The notes beneath the pieces were generated by a model. That model had not been told where the DNA came from and made no database searches. It worked only from the letters and a program-made list of their open reading frames with translations. 64,000 nucleotides of DNA from assembly GCA_035495615.1 (NCBI GenBank), contig DATJFP010000088.1, forward strand, positions 41,763 to 105,762. The letters run 5' to 3'. This document shows positions 36,301 to 60,179 of the stretch, piece by piece (position 1 is the stretch's first letter; every line of letters begins with the position of its first letter). Position numbers and translations under genes: made by a program. The stretch comes from Verrucomicrobiia bacterium. Its GTDB lineage: Bacteria > Omnitrophota > Omnitrophia > Omnitrophales > Aquincolibacteriaceae.

Positions 36301-39300
36301 GCGAAACCTCCGATGCGCTGACGCTGCCGTTCTTCGGGCAGCCGCGCCACGGCCGCATCGACGTCCGCTTCCGTGCTCTGTTCGTTGGCGGCGAGCGCGT
36401 TCATGGCCGCCTGCGCGTCCCGGATCAGTCTCGAATCTTCTTCTTCACGTTCCCGCAGGAAATCGCGGCGCGCCAAAGCCGCTTGCCGCAATCCTTCAAC
36501 TTCGGGCGATTTGGCGTTCTTCAGCCGGTCTTCCTGGGCGCGGATGTCGTTGACGTCTTCCGCGGCGGCGATTCGTTCCCGGATGTTCTGCACCACGGCA
36601 ACGCGCTTGGCCTCGATCTGCGGCCTCGCTCCTGTTTTCAAATCCTCATAAGGTACGGCTTCTGCCCGCTCGGCATAAGATTCGATGACTCCGAGCGGCA
36701 CGCCGTCTACGCCAAAGCCCGTCACGTCGCCGACCAGCCGTTCCATTGTTCGCTGGTAGTAATCGTAAATCTGGGCTTCCATCTGAGTCCGCTTGGCCTC
36801 GAGCCGCGGGAACACGAAAAGAAGGAGCGCGTGAAGGCTGGGGGTCGATTCGGTTTGAGCCAGGAGGTTCTTTTTCGCGCGCGCGTAGGCGGTTTGTTCC
36901 GCCGCGGCTCCGGCCTCCTGGTATTCTTTCAGCGCGCGGACGAATTCGTAGGAACTCTTCTGGTCCAGGGGCGGCATTTCCGTGGAAGTCAGCATGGCCG
37001 CGGCTTCGGGCACGATCTGGTCCGGCTTGTCGAGCTGTGCCGCCATGGCCGAGATGAGCCGCGATTCGTACTCGGCGAGGGCGGCTTCAGTCGTGCTGAG
37101 GCGGGCGCCGATGCGCGATTGAAGTTCCGAGACAAGAGGCGCGGGACTGTCGGCCGTTCCGGCAAGCGCCGCGGCTTCCTGGCCCAGGCCCTGGAGGCTC
37201 TGGTAATTTTCGTGCGGATCGCCGCGGGTCTGCTCGAGACGCTGGGCAATGTCGCGGAACTTGATCGTGTTATCGACCTGCGGCGTACGAACTTCGCCGG
37301 GCAGCACTTCGAAAAAGGCAATGACCGCCAGGATGGCGTCGAAATTCGCGGCCACATCCCCCATGTGGGGCTGCAGCGCGCCTTGCAGGAGGGTTTGTCC
37401 GCGCGCGGCAATGATGCCCGGAATCTGGGGCCTGTCCGCTTCGGAGGCCGCGCCGCGCTGCGCGTACGTGTCTACCAGGATCTGCGGGCTCATGGCCTGC
37501 GCCGTCGTGGTCTGGATCAGTTGAAACGCCCGGGCCAGCTTCAGGACGTTCAGGGCGTCGTTATTTTCAGGAGAAAATTTCGTGGTGTCCCACGTGATGG
37601 CGGCCAGACGCTCGAAGGAGTCCGCGCGGTTGATTTGCTTGGCCAGCCGGCCGAAGCGGGATTTTTCCGTGCCGCGCCATTTGATCACTCCCCAAATGGC
37701 TCCGGCTCCGGCCGCGAGACCCGCTGCGATTAAAGCGGGCCCGGTAAGATTGGGCGCGTTGACCGTGACGCCTCCTGCTTGTTCCGCCAAATACTGATAA
37801 AGTTCGTAAACGCCGTAAACCGCCACGCCGGCGCCGGTGAGAACTCCCAGGCCGAGCAGAATGCGGTTTCTCCAGACGCGGGCCGTCTCTTCCCGTCTTT
37901 CCAGTTCGGTCTTTCTCGCGCGCGCGCCGTCCTGCTCCGCCGCGGGCAGATCATTGATCACAGCTTCGGTAATATCGGCCGACCGCCGGGCTGCTGCGAC
38001 GGCTGCGCGCGCATCCTCGATCTTCTTGAGAGCGTCGCGCTTTTCCCGGGCCTGGTCCCGCTCGCCGTCGTTTTCGAGATCCGCGAGCACCGCGTCGGTA
38101 ATCTGCGCCGACTGCGTGGCCGTGGCGACCGTACTTCTCGCGGCTGCAAGGCGCGCCGCCTGGATCGCCGTCCTCTTGCCTTCCGCGACTCCGGCGAGCC
38201 TCGCCGCTTCCGTCGTCTGAGCTCCTTCCAGACGCGCCGTCTGCGCGGCCACCTCTTCGATCGTGCTGGCGTCGGTCAATGCCGTCAACTTGCCTTCGAT
38301 GTCCGCCACGATTTGCGTGACTTTGCCGCGGATTTCATCTTCCACCGCCCCGCGAGCGGCCCCGTCTTTGATGCCGGCCGCCAGAGGCAGAAGAGCTTCG
38401 GCGTCGCTTATTTTCGCGGCAGCGGCATCGATCTGTCCGAGCTGTGTCCGGATATCGCGCGCTTTATCCTCGTCACCCCGCAGCCGGTCGCGAATCTGTT
38501 CCACGGCGGCATCCGCCTGGTCTTTCACCTGGATGCGGAGACGTTCCTCCAGACCGTTCACAATGGCGGCGAGCTGATCTTCCGTGGCCGTTTCCAAATC
38601 CAGGGCTCCGATCGCGCGCTTGGCCTCAGCGACCGCGCGGCCGTCCGCTTCGATTCTCGCCTCGATGGCTGCGCGTTTGGCTTCCGCCAATTCCCGCAGC
38701 CGCGCTGCTTCGGGAGTCTTGGCATCTTCGAGGCGTGCGGTCTGCGTCACCACCGATTCGGGAGTGTTGAGTTCGGTGAGGGCATTCAATTTGCTTTCGA
38801 TGTCGGCGACGATCTGCCCGACTTTGCCGTTGATCTGGCTTTCGACACTGCCGCGAAGCGTCGCGTTCTGGATCTGCGCGGCGCGCGTCAGCAGGGCTTC
38901 CGCGTTTTCGATCGTGGCGCTTTCAGGCTGAACCTGCCCGAGATCCGAAAGGATGGCGCCGGCTTTTTCGTTGTCGCTGCGGCCGCGCTCGCGGATCGCG
39001 GCAATCTTGGCATCCGCTTCGTCGCGCACATGATCACGCAGGCGGGCCGGCAGCCCGCTGCGAATGGCTTCAACGGCGTCTTCCGCCGCCGTGTTCACAT
39101 CAATGTCGTCGATCTGGCGCTTGGCTTCGACTATAGCCCGGGCATCGGCCCCGAGCCTGTCGCTGATCGCCTGTTTTTTCTGTCCCGCCAGATCGCGCAG
39201 GCGTCCGGCATCGGCAGCGGCGGCGCCTTCGAGCCGCGCAGCCTGGGCATCCGGGTCAGCCAGCGCATTCAGTTCCGTCATGGCGTTCAACTTGCCTTCG

Positions 39301-42300
39301 ATGTCCGCGACAATCGCGGTAACGCGGGCGTTGATTTCGCCCTCGATCGCGCTCCTCAAGGTTTCTCCCTTGATCTGTTTCGCCCGCGGCAACAAGGCTT
39401 CGGCGGCGTGCACGTTGGCATCGCCCGGAAGGAGGGCCGCAAGATCGCCGCGGATCGCTACTGCTTTTTCATCGTCGCTTCTCAAACGTTCGCGGATGGC
39501 CGAGAGCGCCGCCGCGACATCTTCCGCAATCTGGTCACGCACGCGTTCGGGCACGCGCGTCTCGATGGCTTGGACCTGGGCAGGCGTCGCGGTTTCGGGA
39601 TCGAGCTGGCCGAGGTCCTGTTTGGCCGCCGTGACGGCTTCGCGGTCCGCGGCGATGCGCCTCGTGATGGCGTCCATCTTGCCGCGCGCCAGATCGCGAA
39701 GGCCTGCGGCTTCCGAGGTAAGCGCGTCTTCGAGGCGCTGGACCTGCGTGTCGACTTCGGCCGCCGCGCTCAACTCGGTCAAGGCTTCCAGTTTTCCGCG
39801 GATGTTTTGGACGATCCCGCCCACTTTCGCGTTGATTTCATCCCGCACGGTTTCTCTCAGAGCGGGGTTCTTGATGTCCGCGGTCTCCGTCAAAAGGGCT
39901 TCGGCTTCTTTGACAGCGGCCGTTTCAACCGGCAGCAGTCCAAGCCGCTCACGAATGCTTTGCGCTTTTTGTCCGTCGGTTTCGATGCGCTGGCGGATCG
40001 CAAGCAGGGCCGCCTGCGCTTCGGTGCTCACCTGGCCGCGCAGACGTTCAGCAAGACCGTTCACGACGGCTTCGACATCGGTGGCCGCGGCTTCATTTAT
40101 ATTAAGGCTCGTGATCGCCTGCTTCGCCTGGCTTACGGCGAGCTCGTCCGCCCGGATCCTTCTCTCGATGGCGGCCGATTTTTCTTCCGCAAGCGTGCGC
40201 AGCCGGCCCGCTTCGGACGTGGCCGCGTCTTCCAGCCTCGGCGTAATCGCCGTCACGCTGGCGGGCTCGTTCTGGTCCGTCACGGCATTCAATTTCCCTT
40301 CGATGTCCGCAACGATCGCTTTGACTTTCTGATTGATCTCGCCTTCGACCGCGGAGCGCAGCGTTCCGTCTTTGATCTGCCCGGCGCGGGTCAGCAGCGC
40401 TTCCGCGTCTTTGATCGCCGCCGTATTGGCAATCGCTCCGAGGTCACCCCGGATGGCCGCCGCCTTTTCGGTATCGCCCTGCGTGCGTTCGCGAATCGTG
40501 GCGGCCGCGGCATCCGCTTCGGCCTTGACCTGATCACGCACCCGTTCGGGCACGCGATTGCGAAGGGCTTCTACGTCGTCCACCGCGGCCGTGTCCAGAT
40601 TGAGCGCCGCGATCGCCTGCTTGGCTTCGCGCACGGCGCGTTCGTCCGCGTCGATCCGGTTTTGAATGGCCCTGGATTTCTGCTCCGCCAACTCCCGCAG
40701 CCGGGCCGCTTCCGGCGTCACCGCGCCTTCAAGCCGCGACGTCTGGGCCGTCACTTCTTGGGCCGTGCTGAGTTCCGTCAAGGGCGTCAGCTTCGTTTCG
40801 ATGTCCGCGGCGATCTGGCCGGTCTTGGCATTGATCTCGCCTTCCACGGCCGGACGCAGCACCGCATCTTTGATCTGCGCCGCGCGGGGAAGCAGCGCTT
40901 CCGAATCCGTGAGCTTGGCCGTCGCGGCGGCGATACCCTGCAGGTCCGAACGAATCGCCGCGGCTTTTTCTCCGTCGCCCCGCGTGCGGTCGCGGATCGT
41001 GGCAATGGCCGCGTCCGCTTCGGTCTTCACCTGCTCGCGCACCCGCTGGGGCACCCCATTGCGGAGGGCTTCCACTTCGTCCACCGTGGCCGTGTCCAGA
41101 TTGAGCGCCGCGATCGCCTGCCTGGCGCCGCTCACTGCGAGCGTGTCGGATTCGCCGCGGCCGGAGATGGCCTGAGACTTTTGGCCTGCCAGCTCCCGCA
41201 GCCGGGCCGCTTCCGGCGTCACCGCGCCTTCGAGCCGCGCCGTCTGGGCCGTCACCTGGTCGGCCGTGCTTTCGTCCGTCAAGGCGTTCAACTTTCCTTC
41301 GATGTCCGCGACGATCCGCGTCACGACCGCGTTGATTTCGCCTTCCACGGTCGTCCGCGCGGTCTGGTCCTGAATCTTTGCGGCGCGCTCGAGCAGCGCT
41401 TCCGCGTCTTTGATGTTCGCGGCCGCCGGCACGATCCGTCCGAGATCCGCGGCAAGGGGCCCGCGAAGCGCCGTGTCTTCTTCGCCCCGCTTTAAGTCAT
41501 CCCGCCGCCGTTGAGCCCCTGCCAAAATCACGTCGTAGGCGCTTCTTTCATCCCCGGCGAACGTCACCCCCGTCACAAGCCGTTCCGCTTCATCAAGTTT
41601 CTGCTGCGCCTCGGCCGCTGTGTCCGCAGCCTGGGCTGCGGCAAGCAATCCGACCAGCGAAACAACATTGCCTCGGCGCGTTACCTGCTCTTGTTCGGCT
41701 CGCTTCAAGTCGCGCTGCTTTACGCGCAGGGCTTCGAGGGCTTCGGTATAACGGGCTTCTTCCTGGCCGGCAAATGTGACCTGGCTGCGCAGTGCCGTGA
41801 CGGTCGCGATCGTGGCTTCCGCCTGCGTCGACGAGGTCGGCTCCACGGCCAAAAGAGCCATCAGGTGCCGGACTTTTCCCGAACGTTCGGCTTCCGCATC
41901 TTCGTCCGTCTTGAGACGCTGCGCGGCTTCGCGTGCAAGCCCGAGCGCATCGGTGTACTGCCGCTGTTCATTCCCCTGAAATTGGACGCGGCCTGCAAGG
42001 TCTTCGGCTTCTCGGATCATTTCCTCGGCTTCGGATGCCGTTGCGGCGCGCTGCGCGCCTGTCAGCAGGCTCTGGATGCGGCGCACCGAGGCTTCGCGGT
42101 CCGCGACAAGTGCCCGATGCTCGGCGATGAGTCCGGCCAGCGCGCGCGTGCGAGTGCTTTCAGCGGCGCCTTCCAGCCTTTTTTCCTGGAGGTCGAGGAC
42201 GCCTGTGTCATAAGTGCTCGTGACCTGGGTCCGGATATTGGATTCGATGGCAAGCGCGGTTTGTTCGACTTCCCCTTCGAGCGTCGTGCGCAGGCCTTGA

Positions 42301-45300
42301 TTGCGGACGCGCGCCACGTCCTTCAGCACGGCTTCCGCTTCCGCCAGCGTGGCCGTCGCCGCTTTCACATTCAAATTCGCGAGCGCGTCACGTACGGTCC
42401 TGGCCAGGGTTTCTTCCTGCGCCACGGCTTCCTGGATGGCTTTCTTTTTCTGTCCCGCCAGCGCCTGGAGCCACGGCTGGGCCGCGGGATTGAAACGCCT
42501 TTCCTGCGCCTCGACCGCGCTGACGGCCGCGGTTTCGTCCATCGCGGTCAGCGTTTCCTGGATGTTGTCAATGAGGCTGCCGATCACGCGGCCGACTTCG
42601 CCCTGCCACGCCTGACGCACGCCTTTGTTCTGGATCTGATTGACCCGCTGATAAAGCATTTCCGCGTCGCTGATCTGGGCAGTCGTAAGGTCGAGGCCCT
42701 CGATCGCTTCCATCACGCCTACGGCAATCTCATCGTCTTTGCGGATCCTGTCGCGGATGGCCTGGCGCACGGTCTCGGCTTCTGCGGCAATGCGCGTCTG
42801 GAGAGGTTCCCGCAAAGTCGCGGCCACGGCGTTCACGTCTTCTTCCTTCGCGGTCTTCGGATCGATCTTGCTCAGTTTCCCCAGAACGTCCTGCACGCTC
42901 GCCGCGTCTTCAGTTTCCTGCAGGGCCATGAGATCCAGCACTTCCACGACCTGTTTGTCCCCGCGCACGGCGTCTTGGAGCCGCAGCGGAAGCGCAGTGA
43001 TCGCGGCTTCCACGTCCTGGGAGGCCGCTTGCCCGATCACCATGCTCGTGATGGCGGCGATCGTCTGCGTTTTCATCGCTTCGTCTTTCTGCTCACGGGC
43101 CGTGATCGCGCGGGTCATCTCCTCCACCTTGCTGCTCAGCCTTTTGAGGACGTCTTCCGGAAGGCGGAGGGCCATATCTTCGGGAAGACGGAACATGACG
43201 GCGTTGACCTGAGGCACGGTAGAGGTCTCGACCGGAAGAGCGCCGATCTCGGCAACCAATCCGTCGATAAAGGCGGAGTCGCTCGCCGCCTGGAAACGAT
43301 CATGGACCGCCTTGACGCCGGCCGTGAGATCCGTGCGCAGATTTCCGCGGTAGCCGCGGGTCCGTTCGCTCTGAGCGGCAAGCTCGTCTTCATTTTTGAC
43401 TCCGGCCAGACGCTCGACGACGTTCTGCGCCACCTTCTCCTGCTGCGCGGCCGCGGCCTGTTCGATCTGGTCCCGGTAAGCGCGGCCAGGCGCAAATCCC
43501 AGCAGCCGCAGCCCCTGTTGGACAAAAGCCGAGACGTCGCGCACCGACACCTCGCGCGCGTCGATTTCCCCGATTTGCCGGACAAGGTCTTCCACGGCAC
43601 TATCCATTCTCTGCCGGCTCCGCTGTTCGCGGCTTTCGGCAAGGTCACGCTGTCTTTTCTGTTCACGGGCCTGACGCGCCTGGTCGACCGGCACGGCTTC
43701 GAGTTGTTCGACCGCGGTTTCGCGGGCCTGTTCTTCCGGCTGTGGCACGGGCTTGGGCTGTTCTTCGGCCACTTCGGCCGCGGGAACTGACTGGACCACG
43801 AGCGAATACAGATGCGCAATGTCTTTGTATTCCTGGAGGACGAGCTTGATGACTTCCGTACGCGTCTGCACGGCCATCTCGAAAAGCGCCTGCTTTCTGC
43901 CTTGCGCGGTTTCATCCGCATCGGTCGTCGACTGCTGTTTCAGCGCCTCGAAAAGCGCGCGGATGAGCGCCGGGAGCTGGGCGAGTTTTTCCTGGACGGC
44001 CAGAAGCTGGCGCGCGGTCTGTTCGCTGGACAATTCTTCTTCGCTGGCAAGGCGTAAGGTTTCCAGGGTGTCGCGAAGGCTGTGGAGTCCCTGCACGAAG
44101 TTCGCGCCGTCCTGATAGCCTTCGCTCAGCTTCGAATAAATATCGCGGTAGGCCACACCGATGGCCTGGACCGCGTTGTCTTGGGCCGCCCGCAATTTCT
44201 CATCCAGGCTTCCGAGCGCTTCATCGAGCTGCTGGATGCGTTCGGTGAAACGCACGCGCAGCGCCTCGGCCCGGGTCTGGATTTCAGTGCCTTCATAATA
44301 AGATTCCCGTGACAAGGCAGCCAGCTGCTCCATGACCACGTCCCGAAGCCGCCACAGGGTGTACTGTTCGTTTTCGATGACCCCGGCCGCTTCACGCACC
44401 AGCGGGAATTGCCCCGCGGGCTGCTGCAGCTGGGCCTCAAGCTCTGATATATAGGAAGCGGTGTGCCCGAGCTCCTGGTCCGTTTCGCGTTCGATTGTGT
44501 TCAAACGGCGCGTCAGCACGCCCATGTTATATTCCGCGATTTGCCGGATCTTCTCGTCCGCGGCGGCGCGGACGCGGTCTTTGAGATTCGCGGGTAGGAG
44601 ATCGACCAGCCGGTTGACTTCCGCGGGCGTGCCGACCGGAACCGAGACTTTCGTCTCGATGGCGGCCGTGACTTTTTGCACCTGCAGGTCGTCGAGCTTG
44701 CCCAGGGAAGCGGCGCCGCGCGCAATAACCGCGGCAAGCGCCTGCCTTCTGGATTTCAAAAATTCAATTTCGCTTCGCACGCCGGGATCCACGGCGTCCG
44801 GATTTTTTCCGAAGGCATCTACCTTCGCGTCGAACTGCGCGAGCGTCCTATCCGCTTCCTCCCGGATTTTCCCGATCTGGAGCCGGATCGTGTCGAAGAT
44901 GCTAGTCGTTTCTTCGGTGAGGTTCGGGACGTTCATGAGGCTTTCGGCGACTTCGAGGCTGCGGATCAGCCTCGTCTCTTCCGTTTCGTAGAAAGCGCGG
45001 GCTGCGGTGACTTCGCCCTTCAAGGCCAAAACGCGTTTTTCCGTGAGTTGGATTTTACGCGTCAGTTCCCGGATCCCGGCCTGGGCGTCTTCGGTCACCC
45101 TCTTCAGGGAATCGTCGAGCTCGCGGAGAAGGTCTTCGGGTTCTTCCGTCGTCCTCAATTCCGCGCGCAGGCCGACAGCAAGCTGGGGCATCTGGCGGGC
45201 ATTCCCATTCAAGCTTGCGAGAAGCTGGCTGCGTCCTTCGCTTCCGAGACCCGCAAAATAGGCATCGGGCCGGCCGAGCAGTTCGCCGATCAGGGCCAGG

Positions 45301-48300
45301 ATTTTTCGGACCGCTCCCGCCGACGGAGTCTGCTTGAGTCCCGCCAGCGTCTGTCCCGCTTCCGCGATCGCTTTCTTGGCATCGACCGCCGCGGGCTGCT
45401 GCACGGGTTGGCGGGCCCGCTCGAGCGCACGCGCGATGCCGGGAAGATCGCGGATTTCAGGAGGCAGGGCTTCGAGAGTCTTGGCAATTTCGGCGACTGG
45501 TTCCGGGACCATCTCCGGATCGAGCTCGGGCGTCAGCGAAACATCGAGGGCATGCTGGATATTATTGTAGAGCAGATTCCCTTCTGTCCCCGTGGCCTTG
45601 TCTTCGTAAGAGAGCTTCTTAATAATGTAGTCGCGCAGGTCCGCCATTGCGAGAGCGATCGTGCCGGCCTGAATCTGGCGCGCGGCAAACAGAATCGCGT
45701 GATGGTCATACGTAATGCCCGTCGTATCCGAAACCTTGGGCATGTTCGCGGCGCGGTCTTCTTTCCAAAGGTCCTCATTGCTCATGGCCGCTTCCGGGAA
45801 GGCCTTGTTATGCTGGCGCAGCGATGCTTCCTCAAGCAAATCCAGGACGGCGTTCCGCTGCTGGCCGCCGAGCGCGTTCCAAGCCGCTTCGTCCGACCGG
45901 CGGATCAATTCGATCTGGTCGCGCAGCGCCTGCTGCAACTGCCCGGCCGCCTCTTCCCGCTGGATTTGGGAAGTCCACGCCTGCGGCAATTTATCGAGGA
46001 TCCAACGCTGTACCTGGACCGAATAATCCGTGACTTTCTTTTCCGTGGCCGTGCGCGGAACGGTGAGGCTCATCGGGTCTCCCGGCTGGACTTGCAGCCG
46101 GTCCAGATGCATCAGGAAATGAATGAGCGCGTTCTTTTCCTGCTTCGTCCACGACGTAAGCTCGGAGTTCCACCGCTGAAGCCCCATGAACCGGTTTCTC
46201 GAGAGATCGTAGCGGCGCTTTTCGATTTCCGGACGCGGGCGCTCCACAGCGCCTTCCTGGAACCGCAATTCGCCTTTCAACGCGGCCTGGCCGAGGTCGG
46301 TAACGACGACGCTGATCTGGCCGGGCTGCACCTTGCCGAGCGCTTCCGTGACGGCCGGATCCCTGACCAAGTGCGCATCCACGGGCCCGGAATAATAGTT
46401 GCTGTCGCCGAGCTCCAGCCGGTTCAAACGGTCGGGCTGTTTGAAAAGCCCGCGGGCTTCCGAATCCTGGCTGCGAAGCACCTTCGCAAAAAGGCGCAGC
46501 GCCTGTGTCTTGTCTTCGCCCGTCTGCCACAAAAACTGGTTCGGACCTTTCCGCTCCAGCACGCCGCCGAAACGGTTGACGATCGCGAGGAGACCCTGCT
46601 GGTATTCCGCAGGAATTTCCGCGGCGATTTTCTTACGCATTTCCTCGAGCGCCTGCTCAGGAGTATTGCTTTCGAAGATGCTTTCGACGATCGTCAGGGT
46701 CATGAGGAAAAAGGCGTGCGCGTATTCAGGATCGCGGGCGATGAAATCGGCGGCTTCCTGGCGGAGACCCAGGCTCGCCGCATTCAGAAATTCGCGCGCC
46801 TTGGGCGATTTTTCGATGACCATGTGCCAGGCCGCGAGCTGGAAGCGCGGGTCGCTCAGGCTTTGCTGCTGGGGCGGGAGGAAAGTCTCCACCAGCCGCG
46901 TTTCGAGCGGCATCGGCTTCTGGCTGAGGGCGTCCACGTAAAGCTGCGTTTCCTTGGTGTCGTCGATCTGGCCGTGGATCCGCGGCGCGATCACAAGGAA
47001 AGAATAATCGTTTTCCTTGAGATAGGCCTCGATGCCGGGCGTATGGAAACCACCGGTAATGATCGCCATGATCTGCTGCTTCCCGGATTCCATTTCCCCG
47101 ACCGCTCTCTCGATCAGGATCTTGTCGCGTTTGAGAGCTGCGGAATAATAACGCTCCACGCGGCCAAGATCCTGATCAAGGATCTCCAAAAGGGACGGCA
47201 ATCCATTGGAGAACTGATGTTGCTTTAAGAGCGGTACGAGGAAATTACGGAATGTCTCTGCCTTGAATTCGTCGCGGTATGTGTAGAAAAAGTCTGCGTC
47301 CTGCTTGGTCAGGGTGAAATTGAACATCTTCTGGTAAATCTCGAAAATGCGGAACAGCCGGTCCAGCTGCACTTCCTCTTCGTTGCGGAACAGCTTGTTC
47401 TTGATGTCCCGCTCGAGCGCCTCGATCTCGCTGAAGATCGCGACGTCGATCGAATCGTAGAGCCTCATATATTTAAGGTAGCGCAGGACCTCGTCGTACT
47501 TCTGGGCCAGCTCTTCCTGCCCGGCCCCCTGCGTCGACTGCATGTTCTGGATTTCGACCTGGAGATAGCCGTAATAGTCCGCGCGCTTCATCTTCTTCAT
47601 GCGGAACTGGACCGTGTTGGTCAGAAACTCGGAGAGTTTTTCACGCGTGAGGACGTTTTTCAGGTCGTTGATCAGGTCTTCGATGCTTTTTTCGGCTTTG
47701 TCGAAATCGATTTCTTTTTCGAGATCGATGAGCGAGAGAAGCGAGTGCATGCCCGGATAATCGTAAAGGGCGATGTTTTCTTTGCGGGCCGTTTCCACGA
47801 GATGGCGGACGTAACTCACGAGTTCGTTGCCGCCGGACTGGAAGGCCTGCCGGTAATGCAGCATGTCCCGCAGATCATCGGAGAAAACGAACCGGGAAAC
47901 ATCGTCCATCAGCTTTCCGAGGTCCGCCAGAACTTTTTCGTCTCGGTCTTTGTATTGCAGGGCGTCGAGATAAGCGCGCCTGTTTTCTTCATAGATCTGG
48001 CGGTCTTCCACGCCGTACAGGTTCAGTTCCGGCCGGTCGACGATCGCGAGGTATTCGGGCCCCGTCAAACGGGCTTCTTTCAAAAAGTAATCCGCGACAT
48101 TTTTGCGGGCTTCTTTGTTCGGAAAAAACGAAAAGAGTTCGGTGAAGAGTTCGCCCTCGGCGCCTTCCAGGTTGATCAGTTTAAGACCGTAATTTTTGGC
48201 GAAATAATCAAGGATGCCCGCGATGTTGCGCTGGGCCTCTTCATTTGCATGAGCGTCCTGGATGTGGATGACGATGCGGTCGCGGGAACCCTGGAAGTTT

Positions 48301-48530: not shown

Positions 48531-48704
48531 GAGGATTTGCCGTCCCTATGTTTTGCTGGCCAAATTGACGTGCTAACTTACCGACTACTTAAAAAATTGA
48601 TTTATATTGTTATATTTAAACTATATATCAAAGTTTTTAAACTCACAATAGTATAGACCGAAATAATTGTAAGTTAAATACTTGATAAAAGTTTTTATGA
48701 AGTA

Positions 48705-48733
48705 AGTATAGCCGCCACTTTCTAAATTGTCAA
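48705..48733 (-). promoter_or_regulatory. Candidate sigma70-type promoter for the giant gene: TTGACA, 17-nt spacer, TATACT on the minus strand
   Basis: The minus strand reads ccgaTTGACAatttagaaagtggcggcTATACTtac inside the 266-bp AT-rich gap (48531..48796) between the receiver gene and the giant-gene ATG. The predicted TSS is near 48697, giving a ~165-nt leader. Confidence 0.4.
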
Positions 48734-48779
48734 TCGGAACTTTAGGCAGAAAGGGAGTTTAGCCTGGTTTTAAGGAAAG

Positions 48780-48795
48780 CCCCTACAATAAGGGG
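48780..48795 (-). terminator. Short GC hairpin (CCCCT-acaata-AGGGG) directly after the stop codon of the receiver gene, flanked by T-rich sequence. A possible weak intrinsic terminator or attenuator.
   Basis: The plus strand reads gaaagCCCCTacaatAAGGGGtttattc at 48776..48803. Receiver stop codon (TAA) is at 48799..48797. The U-tract on the minus strand is poor (cuuuccuu). Confidence 0.25.
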
Positions 48796-48796
48796 T

Positions 48797-49228
48797 TTAT
48801 TCTTCGGGATCGTCTTCCGGGGTCTTCTTCGGGGCGAGGTTATCTTCGATGCATTTGACCAGGTCCTTGGTACTGACCGGCTTAGAAAGGGCAGGTTTAA
48901 TGGTAAACGGCCGCCCCCCTACCACTCCGCCGAAGGCTTCGCTTTGCCCCTTGCCCACGGTAGCGGTAAGAAAAACGATGGGGGTGTTATTGATCTTTTC
49001 CGTTTCTCGGATTTCGATGGCCACCTCCGTACCACGCTTGTCCGGCATAATCACGTCCAGAAGAATGAGGTCGGGTTTGAAGTCTTTGGCCGCCTGCAGC
49101 CCCTGGGCGCCTTTGGTCTCCACGCGGACCTCGAACTTTCCGAGGGCTTCCAGGTTTTTTTTGATCATGCTTGCGAATTTTTCTTCATCGTCGATAACAA
49201 GGATTTTTTTCTTTGCCGGGTCTGCCAT
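48797..49228 (-). CDS. Stand-alone response-regulator receiver (CheY-like REC) protein with an acidic C-terminal tail
   Basis: ORF-track translation [17 protein letters not shown]...LILLDVIMPDKRGTEV...VFLTA has the REC hallmarks (DD pair, phospho-acceptor D in LLDVIMP, T and K in the later loops). An 11-bp gap to the downstream kinase suggests an operon. Confidence 0.8.
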   Translation of the reverse strand: MADPAKKKILVIDDEEKFASMIKKNLEALGKFEVRVETKGAQGLQAAKDFKPDLILLDVIMPDKRGTEVAIEIRETEKINNTPIVFLTATVGKGQSEAFGGVVGGRPFTIKPALSKPVSTKDLVKCIEDNLAPKKTPEDDPEE

Positions 49229-49239
49229 GATTCCTCCTG

Positions 49240-50802
49240 TTAAAATTTCAGCGTGACTTTGGCGCCGTTTTTCTTTCGGTTTTCGATTTTTATTTCCCCT
49301 TTGTGCATTTCGACGATGCTTCGAACGACCGAAAGGCCCAAACCGGTGCCGCCGAGTCCGCGGCGCGTCGTAATGAACGGGTCAAAAATCTTGTCTAGAA
49401 TCTCCGCAGGGATGCCCGTTCCTGTATCTTCTATTTCGACCACGACGCGAAATTCTCCAGCAGGAGGATCCAGGCGACGCGTCGTCAAAATAAGGTCGCC
49501 TCCCTGAGGCATCGCGTGAATGGCATTGGAGAACAGGTTAACAAAAACCTGCATCATCCTGTTTTTGTCGAGCGGCAGCGGAGAAACGCCCGAATCGTAT
49601 TTCTTGGAAGTTTGGACTTTATTATTCATCAGCAGGTGCTTGACCAGATTCAGCGATTCATCCATGACTGAATGCAAATCCACGTTTTCCATCATGGGTT
49701 CCACGGGAGCGGCAAAATCCAGGAGACCTTTGATGACAGCGTCGGCCCGGCGCACCGCGTCGATCATGTCCTGCAGGACGCTTGCCTTTTCCTGATCTGC
49801 ATCACCCATCGTCTGCTGTAAATATTCCGCGCCTTGAAGCAGGATCGCCAGGGGGTTTTTGACCTCATGAGCCACGCCCGCGGCTAAGCGGCCCACCGAT
49901 TGCAATTTCTCCGCCTGGATGAGCTGGTCCTGGGTGGAACGCAGACGTTCATTGACCCGTTTCAATTCCATCAGGGCTTCGATGAGCTTCTGCTCGTTCT
50001 TTAATTGCTCCTGAATGGCGTCTTTGAGCTTTTCCTCGACCTTGACCTGGTCCGAGATCTCCCGAAAAAAAAGCATCAGGCCGGCAAGCGTGTTGTTGTC
50101 AAACACCGGATGGACAACGAAGTTCACCGTCAAGGTCCCGCCCTTTTTGTCATAAAAAGAGACCTGATCGGCGGCGCGCAGTTGTCCGTCGCGGAGGGTT
50201 TCCAACATTTCTTTCCCTGGATTCAAAGCCGGCGGTGAAAGGCCTGTATCCGGCATCAGGATCTCCTCGAGGCTGTGGCCGAGAATCTCCTTCACGCTCC
50301 GTCCGAGCATCCGGCACGCAGAAGCATTCGTTTGAACAGCCCTGCCGTTCAGGTCCGTCTCCACGATTCCTTCGGTCACGGCATTCACGATCAAAGCCTT
50401 CCTCAGCTGGCTGCTCAGGAGCGCGATCTGGAGATCTTTCTTGGAAGCGGCATTCTTAAGCCAATGCGCCAGAAGCTCCGCGTCCAGGCTCGCCTTGGGA
50501 AGATAATCGGCAAATCCCATCTGCAGGGCCTGGGCGGCCGCCCGCTCATCATTGTTGCGGATGAGCGCAAGAACAGGGATTTGTTTGGACTCGGAAGAGA
50601 ATTTTTCAACGCGATCGGGACGTCCGGAAAAAAAATCGAAATTGACCAGAATGATGGAAGGCAAAAAACCGCGGATCTTCGACAAGCCCTCTTCGAGGTC
50701 CGCCGCTCTATAAATCTGCAGGCTCGCTATTTTCTGCGATTCCAGCAGCCCTTCCAAAAAGTCGGCATCCTGGGCATTGTTTTCGATGAGAAGGACCTTC
50801 AT
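49240..50802 (-). CDS. Sensor histidine kinase with N-terminal receiver-like domain, PAS domain, HisKA (AHEVKNPLAIL) and HATPase_c (DTGTGI...GGTGLGL)
   Basis: Translation from the ORF track. The H-box, N/G1/G2 boxes and a PAS-like segment are recognisable. Confidence 0.8.
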   Translation of the reverse strand: MKVLLIENNAQDADFLEGLLESQKIASLQIYRAADLEEGLSKIRGFLPSIILVNFDFFSGRPDRVEKFSSESKQIPVLALIRNNDERAAAQALQMGFADYLPKASLDAELLAHWLKNAASKKDLQIALLSSQLRKALIVNAVTEGIVETDLNGRAVQTNASACRMLGRSVKEILGHSLEEILMPDTGLSPPALNPGKEMLETLRDGQLRAADQVSFYDKKGGTLTVNFVVHPVFDNNTLAGLMLFFREISDQVKVEEKLKDAIQEQLKNEQKLIEALMELKRVNERLRSTQDQLIQAEKLQSVGRLAAGVAHEVKNPLAILLQGAEYLQQTMGDADQEKASVLQDMIDAVRRADAVIKGLLDFAAPVEPMMENVDLHSVMDESLNLVKHLLMNNKVQTSKKYDSGVSPLPLDKNRMMQVFVNLFSNAIHAMPQGGDLILTTRRLDPPAGEFRVVVEIEDTGTGIPAEILDKIFDPFITTRRGLGGTGLGLSVVRSIVEMHKGEIKIENRKKNGAKVTLKF

Positions 50803-50877
50803 GACGACACACCGGTCTTCGGGAATAAACCAGATTCAGGAAGGAAATGTTGGGGCGCGGGACGTAGGAAGCGAGGA

Positions 50878-51243
50878 TTACTCTTCCCCAAGATTGCTTC
50901 GCACTTTTTTTAGCAGGTCTTCCGGGCGGTAGGGCTTCACCATGTAGTCCTTGACGCCTTCGAGCTCGAACAGGTCTTTCATCTTATCCTTGGCAGTCAG
51001 GACAATCACGGGAGTCGCCTTGATGGCCTCATTGCGCTTGAGCGTCCTTACGAAAGTGTAGCCGTCCATCTTGGGCATGAGAACATCGACGATGATGAGA
51101 TCGGGATGTTCTTTTTGGACTTGCAGGAGGCCTTCTTCCCCGTCATGAGCCGTCACTACCTGATAGGAACACGCCACCAAACGGTTCTTCAGCAGTTCCA
51201 CGATGTGGGGGTCGTCGTCAATGACTAGGATTTTTTTTGACAT
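50878..51243 (-). CDS. Single-domain response regulator (CheY-like)
   Basis: [18 protein letters not shown]...[14 protein letters not shown]...VIVLTAKD...MVKP are canonical REC motifs. Confidence 0.8.
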
Positions 51244-51326
51244 TCATCCTCAATGCCTTCGCCGGGAGAGGGCCCGATGTCGGCCCCTAAAATATCGGCC
51301 TCTCTCCAGGGAAAATTAAGCGAAGA

Positions 51327-51402
51327 TGGTGGACCTGAGGAGGATCGAACTCCTGACCTCATCGTTGCGAACGATGCGCTCTCCCAGCTGAGCTACAGGC
51401 CC
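51327..51402 (-). tRNA. tRNA-Ala (anticodon CGC) with encoded CCA
   Basis: The reverse complement reads GGGCCTGTAGCTCAGCTGGGAGAGCGCATCGTTCGCAACGATGAGGTCAGGAGTTCGATCCTCCTCAGGTCCACCA. It has a 7-bp acceptor stem with the G3:U70 Ala identity pair, D-loop AGCTGGGA, anticodon loop TTCGCAA, T-loop TTCGATC and a 3' CCA. Confidence 0.85.
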
Positions 51403-51411
51403 ATTGAATTT

Positions 51412-52257
51412 TTAGTCCAGACGCGAAAAGGATTCCGACGCGTTAAGAAACTGGCGGAGCACTTCAAAGACCTTTTCCTGGCCTAATTCATTAAAAATTT
51501 CATGATAAAACCCCTCGAAGATTTGCATCTCTTTGTGGGGTGACTTCACTTTGTCAAAGAAAGCCTTCGTTTTTTCCCGGTCCACGACTTTTTCAAGCCC
51601 AGACATCAGGATGTAAACGGGAAAAGGGAAATCAAATGCCGGTTCGGCATCAATTTTGCGGCCATATGTTATCATTTCCGCCAGCAATCGAACAGAAATT
51701 TTTCGCTTAATGAGCGGGTCCTTTTTGTAGGCCTCGATCTCTTCGGGATTATGCGACAAGTGCGGCGGGTAGACGGGATTGGCATACACGAGCCTCGGGT
51801 GAATCCGGTTGAGCATCGCGTTGAATGCGATCAGAAAGGAAGACAGCTTGAGCCCCAGGCACGGTGACGATAAAATCAAGCACGCAATTTCTTCCGGAAA
51901 CCGCTTCGCCCAATGGACCGCGACAAGCCCGCCGAGGCTGTGCCCGAACAGAATGATCTTACCGTTCACACCGTGGCGTTTTCTCAAAAAATCCCGGAAC
52001 GCGGTGAGGTCGTCCACAAACCGGTCGAGCGAATCAATATAAACCTCGCGTCCCCCTGAACGCCCCATACCCCGCGCGTCGTACATGGCCAGGGATATCT
52101 TCTGCGTTTCGAGATGACGGACAAATTTATGATACCGGCCGCAGTGCTCGCCGTGTCCATGGACGATGATCATGGTCCTCTTGGCGTCGGGATTAGCGTA
52201 ATAGCGGTAAAATAATTTTGTCCCGTCCTGCGCTTGAAAAAAATCCTGCTCTTCCAT
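51412..52257 (-). CDS. Alpha/beta-hydrolase of the lysophospholipase / monoacylglycerol-lipase family
   Basis: Has the HGxGEH oxyanion region (IVHGHGEH) and the nucleophile elbow GHSLGG. Confidence 0.75.
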
Positions 52258-52267
52258 GCCGCTGCTT

Positions 52268-54073
52268 TCAGGAAACGGTCCTGAAAGACTCTCCTTTTTG
52301 ATACATGGCTTCGACCACCGATTGGAACTTTTCCAAAACCGCCTTCCGTTTGATTTTCAGGGTAGGCGTCAGCTCTCCCCCTTCGACGGTCAGGTCCTTT
52401 TCGAGAAGCGTGAAATATTTGATCTGTTCATACCGCGCGAGATTCGCCGTCTTGGCCTTAATATGCTCCTCGGCCCACTGCAGGATCTGGGGATCTTTGA
52501 GGAGTTCCGCCCACGGCCGCTGCAGTCCCAGAGCGGCGGCATGCCCCTCGAATTCGGTGCGGTTAGGGACGATCAGGGCCACAAGATAGTTCCGCTTGTC
52601 GCCGACCACCACGGCCTGGAGGAAGATGCGGTCTGCGGTCAGTGTGTTTTCGATGTTCTGCGGGGAGATATTCTTCCCGCCCGAGGTTACGATGATGTCT
52701 TTTTTCCGATCTGTGATTTTCAAAAAACCTTCCGCATCGATTTCTCCGATATCTCCGGTACGAAACCAGTCTCCGTCAAACACCTGCCGCGTGGCCTCGG
52801 GATTCTTGTAATAACCTTTCATGACGCACGGTCCCTTGGTGAGGATTTCGCCGTCCTCCGCGATTTTGACTTCCACGTTGGGAAGCGGCTTCCCTACGGT
52901 TCCCAATTTGAGCGCATTGGGACAGTTCACCGCAATGACCGGGGAGGTTTCGGTGAGTCCGTATCCTTCCAAAATAACGACGCCGGCTGCGTAAAAAAAT
53001 TCCGCGAGCTCTTTGGAAAGCGGGGCCCCGCCCGAAATAAAAAACCGGATACGCCCTCCGAGCTTGCCGCGCAGTTTATTGAAAACCAGAAGCGCGGCAA
53101 TGCCTCTTTTGAATTTCAAAGCAGGCGAAGGCTGTTTCTTACGCAGGTTGACGGCTGCGTACTCCCGCCCCGTTTTCACGGCCCAGGCAAACAGAGCTTT
53201 GCGGAGCGGCGAGGCATGCTCGATCTTTTCCATGATACGCGCATGCATTTTTTCGTAGAGGCGCGGGACGCTGGCCGCAATCGTCGGTCGCACTTTCATC
53301 ATGTCGTCGGGAACGCTCTGCATACTTTCCGCGTAGGCAATGGCAGCGCCGTGAAAAATCATGAAATAATAGCCGGCAAGGCGCTCGAAGACGTGGCTCA
53401 AGGGCAGAAAAGAAAGCGCGACATCGTCTTCCCGGACTTCGATGACTTCGCTGGCGCCGAGGTAATTCGCCACGAAATTCCGGTGGGTCAGCATGACTCC
53501 TTTCGGAGGGCCCGTGGTGCCGGAAGTATAGATTAGCGTCGCAAGATCTTCGGGCGACGTCTTGTCTATTTCCTGGCGCACCGTGTCGGGCGAGCGTTTT
53601 TTTTCTTCTTCTCCTTTTTTCAGAAAACCGTCGAATCCGGGCCCGTCGAAGAGGACGAGCATCCGGAGCGCCTGGTAGCCCGACAATGCCTCCTGAATGC
53701 GCGCCTGCTGTTCTTGCGTGGAGACAAACAGGACCTCGATACCGGCATTTTCCAGGATGTAACGGATGTCTTTGCAGGAGGAGGTGGGATAAATGGGAAC
53801 CGTGACGGCTCCAAGCGACAAAATACCGAGATCGGCGACAGTCCATTCAGGCCGGTTTTCGGAAAGGATTCCGACGCGGTCCCCTCGGCGCACGCTGGCC
53901 GCATGAAGCGCGAAGGCCGCCGCCTCGACTTTGGCAGCCCATTCCTTCCAGGTCCAGCCCACGTAATCGCCTGAGGGACGGGTCTTATAGAAGAGCGCTT
54001 TTCTGTCCCGGAACCGGTCCACCCGCGCGAGGTAAAGCTGGACCAGGTTGGATGACAACTCCTGATTGTCCAT
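52268..54073 (-). CDS. Long-chain fatty-acid--CoA ligase (AMP-dependent synthetase/ligase, FadD-like)
   Basis: AMP-binding motif YTSGTTGPPKGV, plus GYGLTE and the C-terminal ...RTGDIG... / ...GGKNISP... elements. Confidence 0.8.
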   Translation of the reverse strand: MDNQELSSNLVQLYLARVDRFRDRKALFYKTRPSGDYVGWTWKEWAAKVEAAAFALHAASVRRGDRVGILSENRPEWTVADLGILSLGAVTVPIYPTSSCKDIRYILENAGIEVLFVSTQEQQARIQEALSGYQALRMLVLFDGPGFDGFLKKGEEEKKRSPDTVRQEIDKTSPEDLATLIYTSGTTGPPKGVMLTHRNFVANYLGASEVIEVREDDVALSFLPLSHVFERLAGYYFMIFHGAAIAYAESMQSVPDDMMKVRPTIAASVPRLYEKMHARIMEKIEHASPLRKALFAWAVKTGREYAAVNLRKKQPSPALKFKRGIAALLVFNKLRGKLGGRIRFFISGGAPLSKELAEFFYAAGVVILEGYGLTETSPVIAVNCPNALKLGTVGKPLPNVEVKIAEDGEILTKGPCVMKGYYKNPEATRQVFDGDWFRTGDIGEIDAEGFLKITDRKKDIIVTSGGKNISPQNIENTLTADRIFLQAVVVGDKRNYLVALIVPNRTEFEGHAAALGLQRPWAELLKDPQILQWAEEHIKAKTANLARYEQIKYFTLLEKDLTVEGGELTPTLKIKRKAVLEKFQSVVEAMYQKGESFRTVS

Positions 54074-54116
54074 CGGACCTCCGGAAGATACTGTTGCTGG
54101 CCGCGGACTGGCGGGG

Positions 54117-54818: not shown

Positions 54819-54980
54819 ATTTCCCCTTTCGAGCCTATTCCCCGCGTCATGAAACGGGGGCCGCAGATGTTGCTAAAAGTTATCGGCCTTTTATCTTAAG
54901 GATTAAGAGCTGTGCACTCAAATACTAGCATGGAAACTTAAATTTGTCATCCAACCATCAAAAAGGAGCCAAAACTATCA

Positions 54981-57014: not shown

Positions 57015-57134
57015 AGGCCTCTATTATCGGCTGTTAAGAGGATTGGATTGAACGCCAATGAGGAAGATAGCCGCGGGGAAGACGGGACCCAAGGATGAGT
57101 CCGGAATGGTACGGGATCTAAGGCAAGCGGAATC

Positions 57135-58242: not shown

Positions 58243-58251
58243 AGCGGAGCT

Positions 58252-60178: not shown

Positions 60179-60179
60179 A

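Follow-up and report, generated by a model that had tools for sequence, protein, structure and literature searches.

The giant open reading frame and its neighbourhood

The window, by which we mean the whole stretch of 64,000 nucleotides analysed, is occupied for most of its length by a single partial open reading frame on the minus strand (1..48530), which begins with an ATG at position 48,530 and leaves the window at its low end. The stop-free minus-strand frame runs from 48,545 to base 1, giving 16,181 codons, and continues past the window edge. Counted from the ATG there are at least 16,176 codons without a stop, and the gene is incomplete in the window. Upstream of it is an AT-rich intergenic region (48531..48796, GC 0.33) with a putative sigma-70-like promoter, TTGACA-17-TATACT (48705..48733, minus strand), which is predicted from its consensus match (11/12) and precedes the ATG by about 175 nt.

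Beyond this region are 16 co-oriented flank genes (48797..63948, minus strand), identified as open reading frames and by synteny with the related loci L001 and L002. Their products include a response regulator, a histidine kinase, a second response regulator, a hydrolase, an acyl-CoA ligase, a patatin-cNMP protein, PilZ, YajQ, another PilZ, SPOR, GNAT, a second SPOR, GH1, LepB and the C-terminus of LepA; a tRNA-Ala (CGC) gene lies at 51327..51402 on the minus strand. No integrase or transposase was found among the open reading frames of this 15.5 kb flank, and no type II secretion or pilus genes. An exact-protein search with LepB gave no match; GH1 was matched on contigs, of which the one listed is 2.7 kb long. 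The flank genes (GC 0.538; GC1/2/3 0.588/0.370/0.657; effective number of codons, Nc, 47.9) were used as the host baseline, the host genome thus being represented by 15.5 kb on one side of the giant gene.

The predicted protein starts with a hydrophobic segment at residues 12-30 (48441..48497, minus strand; WLRTVALLVALIFIVHDVV; mean Kyte-Doolittle value 2.04), a probable signal or membrane anchor. A conserved N-terminal domain follows (residues ~65-575; 46806..48338, minus strand), which was recognised by homology, has a GC of 0.45 at codon positions 1+2 and a GC3 of about 0.70-0.71, and is rich in K, N, I, F and Y. In the closest relatives (L001 and L083) the homology extends to residue ~700-725, and the named homologues come almost exclusively from Omnitrophota MAGs. 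The core of the domain has a TraB/Tiki/EreA/ChaN-like alpha/beta fold. Within the domain D92, H94, E122, E159, E175, R468 and G493-G494-x-H496 are invariant; these may or may not correspond to the catalytic GxxH, Glu and Arg residues of that superfamily. No significant profile match to the Tiki/TraB superfamily was obtained among 25 members (TraB_PrgY_gumN, E 0.01, and ChaN, E 0.12, in one member each); the window's own domain gave no superfamily profile match and no PDB sequence match, and its Foldseek matches had E values of at least 0.2.

The remainder is a GC-rich body (1..46988, minus strand; GC 0.636; GC3 0.74-0.87; Nc 43 falling to 36) rich in Ala, Arg, Glu and Gln. It has no cysteine and its K/(K+R) is 0.17-0.38. 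When all 16,176 residues were scanned, Pfam was almost empty: the only matches were a sub-threshold ARMT1-like one and the N-terminal motif of a P-loop NTPase (residues ~16,084-16,120; 171..281, minus strand), corresponding to the start of the cytidylate kinase profile (E 8.2e-9, 35.9 bits). Module X (residues ~8,684-9,357; 20460..22481, minus strand) was recognised by similarity to relatives' giant genes. By hydropathy, a cluster of ~20 transmembrane-like segments is present at residues 11,354-12,750 (10281..14471, minus strand), part of which resembles a separate gene upstream in the related locus L068. This cluster and the N-terminal segment are among 29 hydrophobic 19-residue windows counted by hydropathy (mean Kyte-Doolittle value at least 1.7). 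An Ala-rich part contains diverged tandem repeats of 501 nt (167 residues; 38197..41444, minus strand) with 60-78% nucleotide identity; these are old rather than recently amplified, and no high-identity tandem arrays were found in the giant gene. The idea that repeats were recently amplified in tandem, or exchange sequence by gene conversion, was accordingly rejected, as these units, confined to one 3-kb stretch, are the only candidates. The long antisense open reading frames that tile the GC-rich region are codon-usage artefacts and not genes.

Position of the GC step and codon usage

The maximum-likelihood GC changepoint falls at 46989..46990, around codon 514, with GC 0.636 below and 0.531 above. 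It is the best single step whether the whole window or just the gene is fitted (statistic 16.4, with a per-base variance of ~0.23, which corresponds to a chi-square of roughly 70), so that only the first ~514 codons (1.5 kb) of the gene are at flank-level GC. The first-pass annotation was therefore right that a discontinuity exists inside the gene but had misplaced it, at about 44 kb, and had overstated its size, at ~14 GC points where ~10.5 were measured. No GC change was found at 44 kb. The 4.5 kb previously thought to be at ~54% GC (44,000-48,530, mean 0.583) is not uniform, having 0.606 over 44,000-47,100 and 0.534 over 47,101-48,530, and the ~68% assigned to the interior is that of its highest 1-kb window (0.68), the mean over 1-43,999 being 0.638. 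GC over the flank (48,797-64,000) is 0.532. The next changepoint within 1-47,000, at 21,266, is weak.

Across the boundary GC1 rises by 0.065 and GC2 by 0.11, and GC3 by only 0.04. Positions 1+2 have their own changepoint at codon 514-540 (0.45 to 0.56); they account for ~80% of the step measured locally and for ~52% of the difference between body and flank. The same profile at these positions, a dip to 0.36-0.39 at codons 300-400 followed by values above 0.5 from codon ~500, was seen in all 12 relatives examined. As the step lies in the C-terminal part of the conserved domain and its profile is shared by relatives, the sharp step is protein-encoded and reflects the passage from the conserved N-terminal domain to the Ala/Arg/Glu/Gln-rich body. 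The earlier suggestion that amino-acid bias is its source thus holds. The flank-like GC of the N-terminal domain is a coincidence of two opposite deviations: compared with the flank genes it is lower in GC at positions 1+2 (0.45 against 0.48) and higher in GC3 (0.70 against 0.657).

Synonymous sites behave differently. After control for amino-acid composition neither 47 kb (z 0.68) nor 44 kb (z 1.5) is marked by a step in GC3. Flank codon usage predicts a GC3 of 0.64-0.68 in every segment and 0.70-0.835 was observed; the observed value is higher by 0.05-0.09 up to codon ~5,000 and by 0.12-0.20 further on. The excess covers the whole gene, including the N-terminal domain, and grows gradually from the start rather than in blocks. 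With GC3 controlled for amino acids, the stratified comparison of body with flank gave z 18.7. The first-pass annotation had named a GC3 profile that becomes uniform under such control as the result that would refute its reading; instead, the whole gene lies above the flank expectation. As this excess is present throughout the gene and absent in relatives, amino-acid bias explains no more than roughly half of what separates body from flank.

The whole gene uses the host's already-preferred codons, mostly ending in C or G, more strongly than its neighbours do. Nc falls from 47.9 in the flank to 45.2, 42.7 and then ~36-37 along the gene, which is 7-8.5 below Wright's curve for its GC3 (36-43 against an expected 43-50); codon bias in the giant gene exceeds what base composition predicts, as is looked for under translational selection. 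From flank to body GGG falls from 0.23 to 0.12, CGG from 0.27 to 0.15 and TTG from 0.14 to 0.06 (p at most 3e-5 for each), and AGG also falls, while GAA is kept and CGC, GGC, CAG, TTC and ATC rise. On a logit scale the G-versus-A and C-versus-G preferences are amplified, with slopes of 1.6-2.4. C-versus-T usage moves by a similar amount in all codon families (slope ~0.95, intercept +0.9), as plain GC pressure would give. Selection scaled by a single factor was consequently rejected, as it fits the purine-ending pairs and fails on the pyrimidine-ending ones. The codons ACG, TCG and GCG rise in the body together with GTG; the rise of these three NCG codons is what high-GC genomes show, relatives' N-terminal domains preferring NCC instead.

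The shift in codon usage between relatives' N-terminal domains and their own flanks, which was taken as the proxy for optimal codons in a window containing no ribosomal-protein or other highly expressed genes, predicts the body-versus-flank shift seen here (r 0.73-0.79). The correlation holds within G/C-ending codons (0.60, p 0.001) and within A/T-ending codons (0.61), and in a joint regression the relatives' shift had a coefficient of 0.93, compared with 0.30 for that of a 'high-GC genome'. With the preferred set defined from relatives only, the frequency of preferred codons (Fop) was 0.45 in the flank, where no gene exceeded 0.56, 0.56 in the N-terminal domain, 0.47-0.51 over codons 571-5,125 and 0.56-0.62 beyond.

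Two sequence contexts are depleted in addition. Homopolymer runs of at least 6 occur at 0.35 per kb in the giant gene against 3.0 per kb in the flank genes, and runs fall below a synonymous-shuffle null (z -2.5 for lengths of at least 6, z -3.8 for at least 4). The internal Shine-Dalgarno-like motif GGAGG was observed 21 times where 60 were expected (z -6.2). An excess of off-frame stops (the 'ambush' idea) was rejected as a gene-specific feature, the flank genes showing the same pattern. Avoidance of nonsense-prone codons was also rejected as a driver: TCG rises and Tyr and Trp are still common, so that it accounts neither for the codon pattern nor for the absence of Cys.

Relatives and compositional signature

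In L001 and L002 the corresponding syntenic site is likewise occupied by a giant gene with this first domain, within the shared order SPOR-PilZ-YajQ-PilZ-patatin-ligase-hydrolase-giant gene. Syntenic relatives at 39% and 51% GC carry giant genes of host-like GC, and ~60 syntenic or homologous Omnitrophota loci have no synonymous GC3 excess. GC does not rise in the relatives whose N-terminal domains are nearest to this one (69-79% identity). Codon bias does not increase over the first ~3,900 codons of relatives, so gene length by itself cannot be the cause.

Apart from module X, the interior could not be aligned with the first 10 kb of ~80 relatives' giant genes; Omnitrophota giant-protein interiors are usually unalignable, 80% being singletons at 30% identity. 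Module X lies ~1,000 residues from the start in relatives and ~7,700 residues further along here. It has a GC of 0.626 and a GC3 of 0.814, against 0.511 and 0.588 in the related locus L022, with GC1 8 points and GC2 3.5 points higher, and its K/(K+R) is 0.32 against 0.46-0.55 in relatives. The body as a whole has the lowest K/(K+R) and a near-highest G+A+R+P among 45 giant proteins with this N-terminal domain. Codon selection alone cannot explain these non-synonymous shifts in module X and the body. A word-indexed protein search gave one match for residues 8,690-9,890 and none for residues 11,700-12,800, the matches all being no longer than ~1,540 residues in a collection where very long proteins are perhaps under-represented. 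When residues 300-1,499 were searched against a library of representative proteins only the N-terminal-domain part was matched, and with no representative spanning both this domain and the proximal body the junction is without an independent replicate.

The correlation of GC-normalised tetranucleotide z-scores between body and own flank was 0.76, whereas the best of the relatives' segments reached 0.67 (median 0.29). With a codon fingerprint designed to depend little on GC3, the own flank ranked first or second among 38 Omnitrophota gene sets as the match to the body. The share of GAG is 0.31 in the flank and 0.24-0.28 in the body, against 0.39-0.65 in the flanks of relatives with GC3 above 0.55. 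Of the usual marks of a genomic island, then, atypical GC is present (0.636 against 0.532); the oligonucleotide signature and codon usage are not foreign, the syntenic site in relatives is not empty, and mobility genes are absent from the one flank visible. On these compositional and syntenic grounds the giant gene looks native and vertically inherited, not built from foreign DNA. The tetranucleotide comparison suggested by the first-pass annotation gave no support for foreign origin, and its proposal of a native 5' end carrying foreign modules of higher GC is not supported, given also the host-like codon fingerprint, the conserved synteny and the lack of a GC3 step.

Origin of the excess and comparison with known systems

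We put at slightly better than even the chance that this is a native Omnitrophota giant gene with a membrane-anchored product, in which a protein-encoded step is combined with intensified selection on synonymous sites. Two effects are superimposed, and both are established by the measurements above: the change from a K/N/I/F/Y-rich N-terminal domain to an Ala/Arg/Glu/Gln-rich body, acting almost wholly through codon positions 1 and 2, and a use of host-preferred codons that is stronger than in neighbouring genes and increases with distance from the start. The second would result from intensified synonymous-site selection in one lineage, the target of which may be translational accuracy, processivity and reading-frame integrity, as any error would waste a huge investment; high expression could add to this selection. 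The scarcity of homopolymer runs and Shine-Dalgarno-like motifs is likewise in keeping with synonymous-site selection. More tentatively, and with the balance somewhat against it, selection to keep the frame intact and fully translated may have reshaped this gene, which exceeds 16,000 codons, with the GC island as a by-product. Preferred codons would then rise from the start, homopolymers, Shine-Dalgarno-like motifs and Lys codons would be purged, and some non-synonymous sites would be affected as well.

A local GC-biased process without codon selection, either GC-biased gene conversion or a gene-specific mutational regime, seems unlikely but accounts for several of the observations. It would have pushed a less constrained body towards GC at all three codon positions, the N-terminal domain being held back by constraint, in what would be a recombination-prone, fast-evolving surface-protein gene. 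The uniform third-position T-to-C shift, the rise of NCG codons, the shifts of module X in GC1, GC2 and from K to R, the extreme amino-acid composition of the body within its family of 45 and the retention of a native signature are all consistent with it. Such a process does not predict that GAG fails to rise or that GGG, CGG, TTG and AGG fall, nor an Nc so far under the GC3 prediction; the depletion of Shine-Dalgarno-like motifs and homopolymers is an effect of codon context that a base-composition drive would not produce, and there are no recent internal repeats to serve as conversion partners. It is improbable, too, that recombination with a lineage of higher GC, the most plausible being another Omnitrophota, brought in or replaced the body, which would since have been only partly ameliorated. 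The interior that cannot be aligned and the displacement of module X could be so explained, as could the 11 GC points by which module X exceeds homologues from hosts of similar flank GC and the lack of a GC rise in the closest relatives; higher-GC Omnitrophota exist (L082, 0.60; L043, 0.59), L082 being the second-nearest codon fingerprint, and some giant loci have been suggested to move on mobile cargo (2026 preprint, 10.64898/2026.06.07.730766). Unalignable interiors are, however, normal for such proteins, the GC3 excess is gradual with no synonymous-site boundary at the junction, the own flank is the best tetranucleotide match, and the low GAG share is common to the flank and found in no reference with GC3 above 0.55, all at a conserved syntenic site with no integrase or transposase in the 15.5 kb flank.

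An assembly chimera, joining a 54% GC organism (flank and gene start) to a 64% GC organism within the conserved domain, is very improbable. The window is apparently metagenome-derived, an exact 62-mer from it was absent from a metagenome collection, and no representative protein spans the junction. Against this, the frame is uninterrupted for 16,181 codons, the step at positions 1+2 falls inside the region homologous to L001 and L083 and reproduces their profile, GC3 does not break at the junction, and the tetranucleotide signature and GAA 'dialect' are common to both sides. Amino-acid composition alone, with inert synonymous sites, explains the contribution of positions 1+2 given above and has practically no chance of being the whole cause, having already been refuted by the distance between expected and observed GC3.

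If this more tentative reading of selection on the whole frame is right, the gene would offer an exceptionally clear example from nature of selection that acts against processivity and frameshift errors according to length and position, and this would explain how giant genes stay functional. Bearing on how Omnitrophota cells maintain and translate open reading frames of tens of kilobases, this gene carries measurable sequence-level signs of error avoidance: rising codon bias, depleted homopolymers and Shine-Dalgarno-like motifs and the lack of cysteine. Relatives are mostly without them, the effect being seen in a single lineage, and so provide a natural contrast between selection and GC-biased processes.

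Codon adaptation that depends on position or length under selection against translation errors was reportedly treated by Eyre-Walker in 1996 and in Gilchrist's nonsense-error model. Ribosome drop-off is expected to be selected against more strongly the further along the coding sequence it occurs (Cope, Pak & Gilchrist 2026, PMC13271495). As in such adaptation, bias here is lowest near the start, increases along the gene and then reaches a plateau; unlike it, the course is non-monotonic, the N-terminal domain being more biased than the next ~4,500 codons, relatives of similar length class show no rise, and non-synonymous GC shifts too. Horizontally acquired genomic islands and their amelioration are said to have been described by Lawrence & Ochman in 1997. 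The ~47 kb block resembles these in lying ~10 GC points over its neighbours and in having a tRNA gene at a distance of 2.8 kb, and composition-based island finders would flag it as foreign. This would be wrong here. The block differs from acquired islands in its host-like signature and codon dialect, its conserved syntenic position and its lack of mobility genes and of a synonymous-site boundary. The compositional atypicality of bacterial giant genes was reportedly noted by Reva & Tummler in 2008 (Environ Microbiol 10:768). Oligonucleotide statistics can set giant genes apart from their genome without horizontal acquisition (SeqWord, PMC2528017). Compared with those genes, the deviation here is an excess of GC and codon bias with a host-like GC-normalised signature, and it is missing from ~60 homologous giant genes in relatives.

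Giant genes and very long membrane-associated proteins are known from Omnitrophota (West-Roberts et al. 2023, 10.1101/2023.11.21.568195; Nielsen & Lui 2026, 10.64898/2026.06.07.730766). In term searches of these two papers no discussion of the GC or codon usage of giant genes was found; the first of them (10.1101/2023.11.21.568195) cites Kizina et al. 2022 for high expression of an Omnitrophota giant protein. Unlike the Archaeovorin type (West-Roberts 2023), the present protein has no glycosyltransferase, methyltransferase, glycoside hydrolase, peptidase, NUDIX or SecA_DEAD domain and, unlike dockerin-type giants, no dockerin I or thrombospondin type 3 (TSP3) repeats by Pfam; both statements apply to the first 16,176 residues, and the missing C-terminal part could still hold enzyme domains. 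These absences place it among the 'Pfam-dark' giants, a minority that numbers 137 of the 916 catalogued in 2026 (10.64898/2026.06.07.730766). With at least 10,000 codons, an Omnitrophota genome and signal or transmembrane features, it has each of the properties by which very long membrane-associated proteins are recognised. It is like the other Omnitrophota giant genes in its open reading frame of more than 16,000 residues, its N-terminal anchor and many transmembrane-like segments, its N-terminal region without a Pfam domain, its sequence-unique interior and its old, diverged repeats.

The giant gene and its encoded modules

The giant gene lies on the minus strand in one frame without stops, which opens at 48,545, reaches base 1 and runs off the window; counted from the ATG at 48,530, it has at least 16,176 codons. 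The intergenic region upstream has 33% GC, and a putative sigma-70-type promoter, recognised by its near-consensus match (TTGACA-17-TATACT, 48,705-48,733, minus strand), lies ~175 nt 5' of the ATG. A terminator-like hairpin follows the response-regulator gene upstream. The 16 co-oriented upstream genes are ordinary and include those for response regulators, a histidine kinase, tRNA-Ala, a hydrolase, an acyl-CoA ligase, a patatin-cNMP protein, PilZ, YajQ and SPOR proteins, GH1, LepB and LepA.

The first ~575-700 residues form a domain conserved across Omnitrophota, with 52 matches in a word-indexed protein search and 469 loci in GTDB genomes. With a query comprising its C-terminal half and the proximal body, 1,138 representative proteins reached E ≤ 1e-10, and among the matches listed only the domain part was covered. 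As this domain almost always starts an ORF longer than the 10 kb of downstream sequence fetched, the gene is a member of the known Omnitrophota giant-gene class (10.1101/2023.11.21.568195; 10.64898/2026.06.07.730766). Pfam gave almost no match over the 16,176 residues, and the gene belongs to the 'Pfam-dark' minority of this class. A hydrophobic anchor lies at the N-terminus of the protein, which has ~29 transmembrane-like segments.

No cysteine codon occurs in the 16,176 codons (1-48,530, minus strand), against 0.64% in the flank genes. Most closer relatives have 0-0.15% in their giant ORFs versus 0.2-1.2% in their own flanks, and 44 long proteins sharing this N-terminal domain have a median of 0.03%, with none at all in 20; cysteine scarcity is a trait of the whole family. 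Antisense ORFs between 760 and 1,886 aa long cover the entire gene in the codon-aligned frame (3-47,225, plus strand; e.g. 165-5,825, 21,558-25,697 and 29,934-34,340). They exist because sense TTA, CTA and TCA codons are so scarce (21 of 16,176 here; the flank has 44 of 4,552). Such shadow ORFs do not merit annotation as genes.

A 501-nt (167-aa) repeat array in an Ala-rich region (38,197-41,444, minus strand) shows only 60-78% nucleotide identity and is an old duplication rather than a recent expansion. A module at 20,460-22,481 (minus strand) lies here ~8,690 aa into the protein, versus ~1,000 aa in several relatives (L022 12,920-14,890; L029 2,505-4,217; L024 6,798-8,477; L002 12,743-14,388). 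The ~7,700 aa interposed before it in this lineage are largely Ala/Glu/Arg-rich and also contain a few transmembrane-like segments. Part of the transmembrane-rich region (10,131-13,433, minus strand; aa ~11,750-12,770) resembles, at 27-33% identity, a separate gene at relative locus L068 (1,172-3,247) that sits upstream of the N-terminal-domain gene there, a likeness suggesting that modules are shuffled between giant ORFs and neighbouring genes. Several relatives have the giant ORF annotated as consecutive genes (691+1,160+571+... aa; L001 10,001-18,886), as 1,297+7,903 aa overlapping by 13 nt (L002 13,882-13,894), or with a frameshift (L085, ~1,600); the causes may be genuine splits, programmed frameshifting or errors of assembly.

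Position and source of the GC step

The first-pass annotation had placed a GC break at ~44 kb, with an interior of ~68%. GC does change inside the gene; the coordinates and values were off. The maximum-likelihood changepoint is 46,989 (codon ~514), and there is no break at 44 kb. GC is 0.534 over 47,101-48,530, 0.606 over 44,000-47,100 and 0.638 over 1-43,999, where 0.68 is only the highest 1-kb window. The flank (48,797-64,000) has 0.532.

Codon positions 1 and 2 carry ~80% of the local step, with their own changepoint at codon 514-540. GC1, GC2 and GC3 are 0.588, 0.370 and 0.657 in the flank genes, 0.608, 0.292 and 0.702 in codons 1-480, 0.673, 0.404 and 0.742 in codons 481-1,510, and 0.679, 0.436 and 0.800 in the remainder. 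The position-1+2 profile per 100 codons (roughly 0.5, 0.45, 0.47, 0.37, 0.44, then >0.5) was alike in all 12 relatives examined, so the sharp step is built into the protein and conserved with it. Where the K/N/I/F/Y-rich domain gives way to an Ala/Arg/Glu/Gln-rich body, an ordinary domain boundary shows through amino-acid composition; the amino-acid bias proposed earlier is borne out here. The noted match between the first part of the gene and its flank holds for the first 1.5 kb, as a coincidence: low GC at positions 1 and 2 offsets high GC3.

Synonymous sites and the origin of the body

Expected GC3, obtained by applying flank synonymous usage to the amino acids of each segment, is 0.64-0.68 throughout. 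Observed values are 0.70 (codons 1-480), 0.74 (481-1,510), 0.76 (1,511-7,200), 0.835 (7,201-12,600) and 0.81 beyond. As the excess grows along the gene, GC3 is not uniform after amino-acid control: in 400-codon windows it changes gradually, without blocks, from +0.05-0.09 up to about codon 5,000 to +0.12-0.20. Stratified by amino acid, GC3 showed a step neither between codons 1-480 and 481-1,510, i.e. at 47 kb (z 0.68), nor at 44 kb (z 1.5). Already in the N-terminal part it is above the flank (z 2.7), and in the body far above it (z 18.7).

The suggestion of foreign, GC-richer modules joined to a native 5' end thus finds no boundary at synonymous sites and is not supported. GC-normalised tetranucleotide z-scores of the body correlate as well with its own flank (r 0.76) as with 44-48.5 kb (0.75), compared with a best of 0.67 and a median of 0.29 for relatives' segments. 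A codon fingerprint designed to be largely independent of GC3 ranked the own flank first of 38 Omnitrophota gene sets for codons 571-9,000 and second beyond. GAG share is unusually low in the flank (0.31) and is 0.24-0.28 in the body, versus 0.39-0.59 in flank sets and 0.40-0.65 in giant-gene bodies of relatives with GC3 > 0.55. Together with synteny at two relatives' loci and the absence of mobility genes among the flank genes (one flank, within the window), this speaks against a foreign origin in recent times and against a chimeric assembly, which is highly improbable. A body acquired long ago from another member of the phylum, with a similar codon dialect, would accord with the general unalignability of these giant-protein interiors between lineages; we consider it improbable.

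Relatives and the nature of the synonymous shift

At both syntenic loci the giant gene has host-like GC (L001, 0.42 vs flank 0.38; L002, 0.51 vs 0.52). At ~50 GTDB loci for which both upstream and downstream sequence could be used, GC of the downstream body mostly departs from that of the upstream flank by no more than about 5 points; in a few distant loci the rise is +7 to +10. In 22 loci compared codon by codon, the body matches the upstream genes in GC3 and Nc (GC3 difference -0.09 to +0.07), and the N-terminal domain is mostly 0.05-0.13 above flank GC3. The closest metagenome relatives (79% and 69% domain identity) have ~0.50 GC throughout. The sole alignable interior module (aa ~8,690-9,360) has GC 0.626 and GC3 0.814 here versus 0.511 and 0.588 in L022, whose flank GC is similar, with GC1 8 and GC2 3.5 points higher; body K/(K+R), 0.29, is the lowest of 45 giant proteins with this domain (median 0.51). 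The GC excess is therefore particular to this lineage and not purely synonymous. In a distant relative, NC_groundwater_242 (58% genome GC, as its name implies), the N-terminal domain (L070 10,001-12,128) has GC 0.629 and GC3 0.85, and the 10 kb upstream of it 0.542 GC; a GC-elevated giant gene may exist in this second lineage, but the contig stops 568 nt past the domain.

Nc falls from 47.9 in the flank through 45.2 and 42.7 to ~36-37, well below expectation from GC3 throughout the giant gene. In many families the host's commonest codon is enriched further (TTC, ATC, CAG, CGC, GGC, CCG, CTG); GGG, CGG and TTG fall despite ending in G, and GAA is kept. The conserved domain of relatives departs from their flank genes in the same family-specific manner, and this departure predicts the body-versus-flank shift here (r 0.73-0.79 overall; 0.60-0.61 when G/C-ending and A/T-ending codons are taken separately); entered jointly in a regression, it has a coefficient of 0.93, versus 0.30 for a 'high-GC genome' shift. 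Fop, with preferred codons defined from relatives only, is 0.45 in the flank (every gene ≤0.56), 0.56 in the domain, 0.47-0.51 over codons 571-5,125 and 0.56-0.62 beyond. Homopolymer runs of ≥6 are 8.6-fold rarer than in flank genes (0.35 vs 3.0 per kb) and below a synonymous-shuffle null (z -2.5; ≥4, z -3.8); the reduction in relatives is only ~2-fold, with z near 0. The Shine-Dalgarno-like motif GGAGG occurs internally about a third as often as that null predicts (21 observed, 60 expected; z -6.2), and GAGG gives z -5.0.

The Nc, codon, Fop, homopolymer and GGAGG features would agree with stronger selection at synonymous sites for accurate and processive translation and for an intact reading frame, a reading that we favour by a modest degree only, since beside them stand features of plain GC pressure: a T-to-C shift uniform across codon families, a rise of NCG codons and the non-synonymous shifts in GC1, GC2 and K/(K+R). 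A local GC-biased process, to which these point, is rather unlikely as the explanation.

Compositional atypicality of giant genes is already known (PMC2528017), and a term search of the two Omnitrophota giant-gene papers (10.1101/2023.11.21.568195 and 10.64898/2026.06.07.730766) found no discussion of the GC or codon usage of these genes. Still of interest is the lineage-specific excess of codon bias and GC that spans this whole Pfam-dark giant gene and bears signs of error avoidance. In theory, the selection favoured above should grow stronger with distance along the coding sequence (PMC13271495), and it would be consistent with the high expression reported for one Omnitrophota giant protein (cited in 10.1101/2023.11.21.568195).
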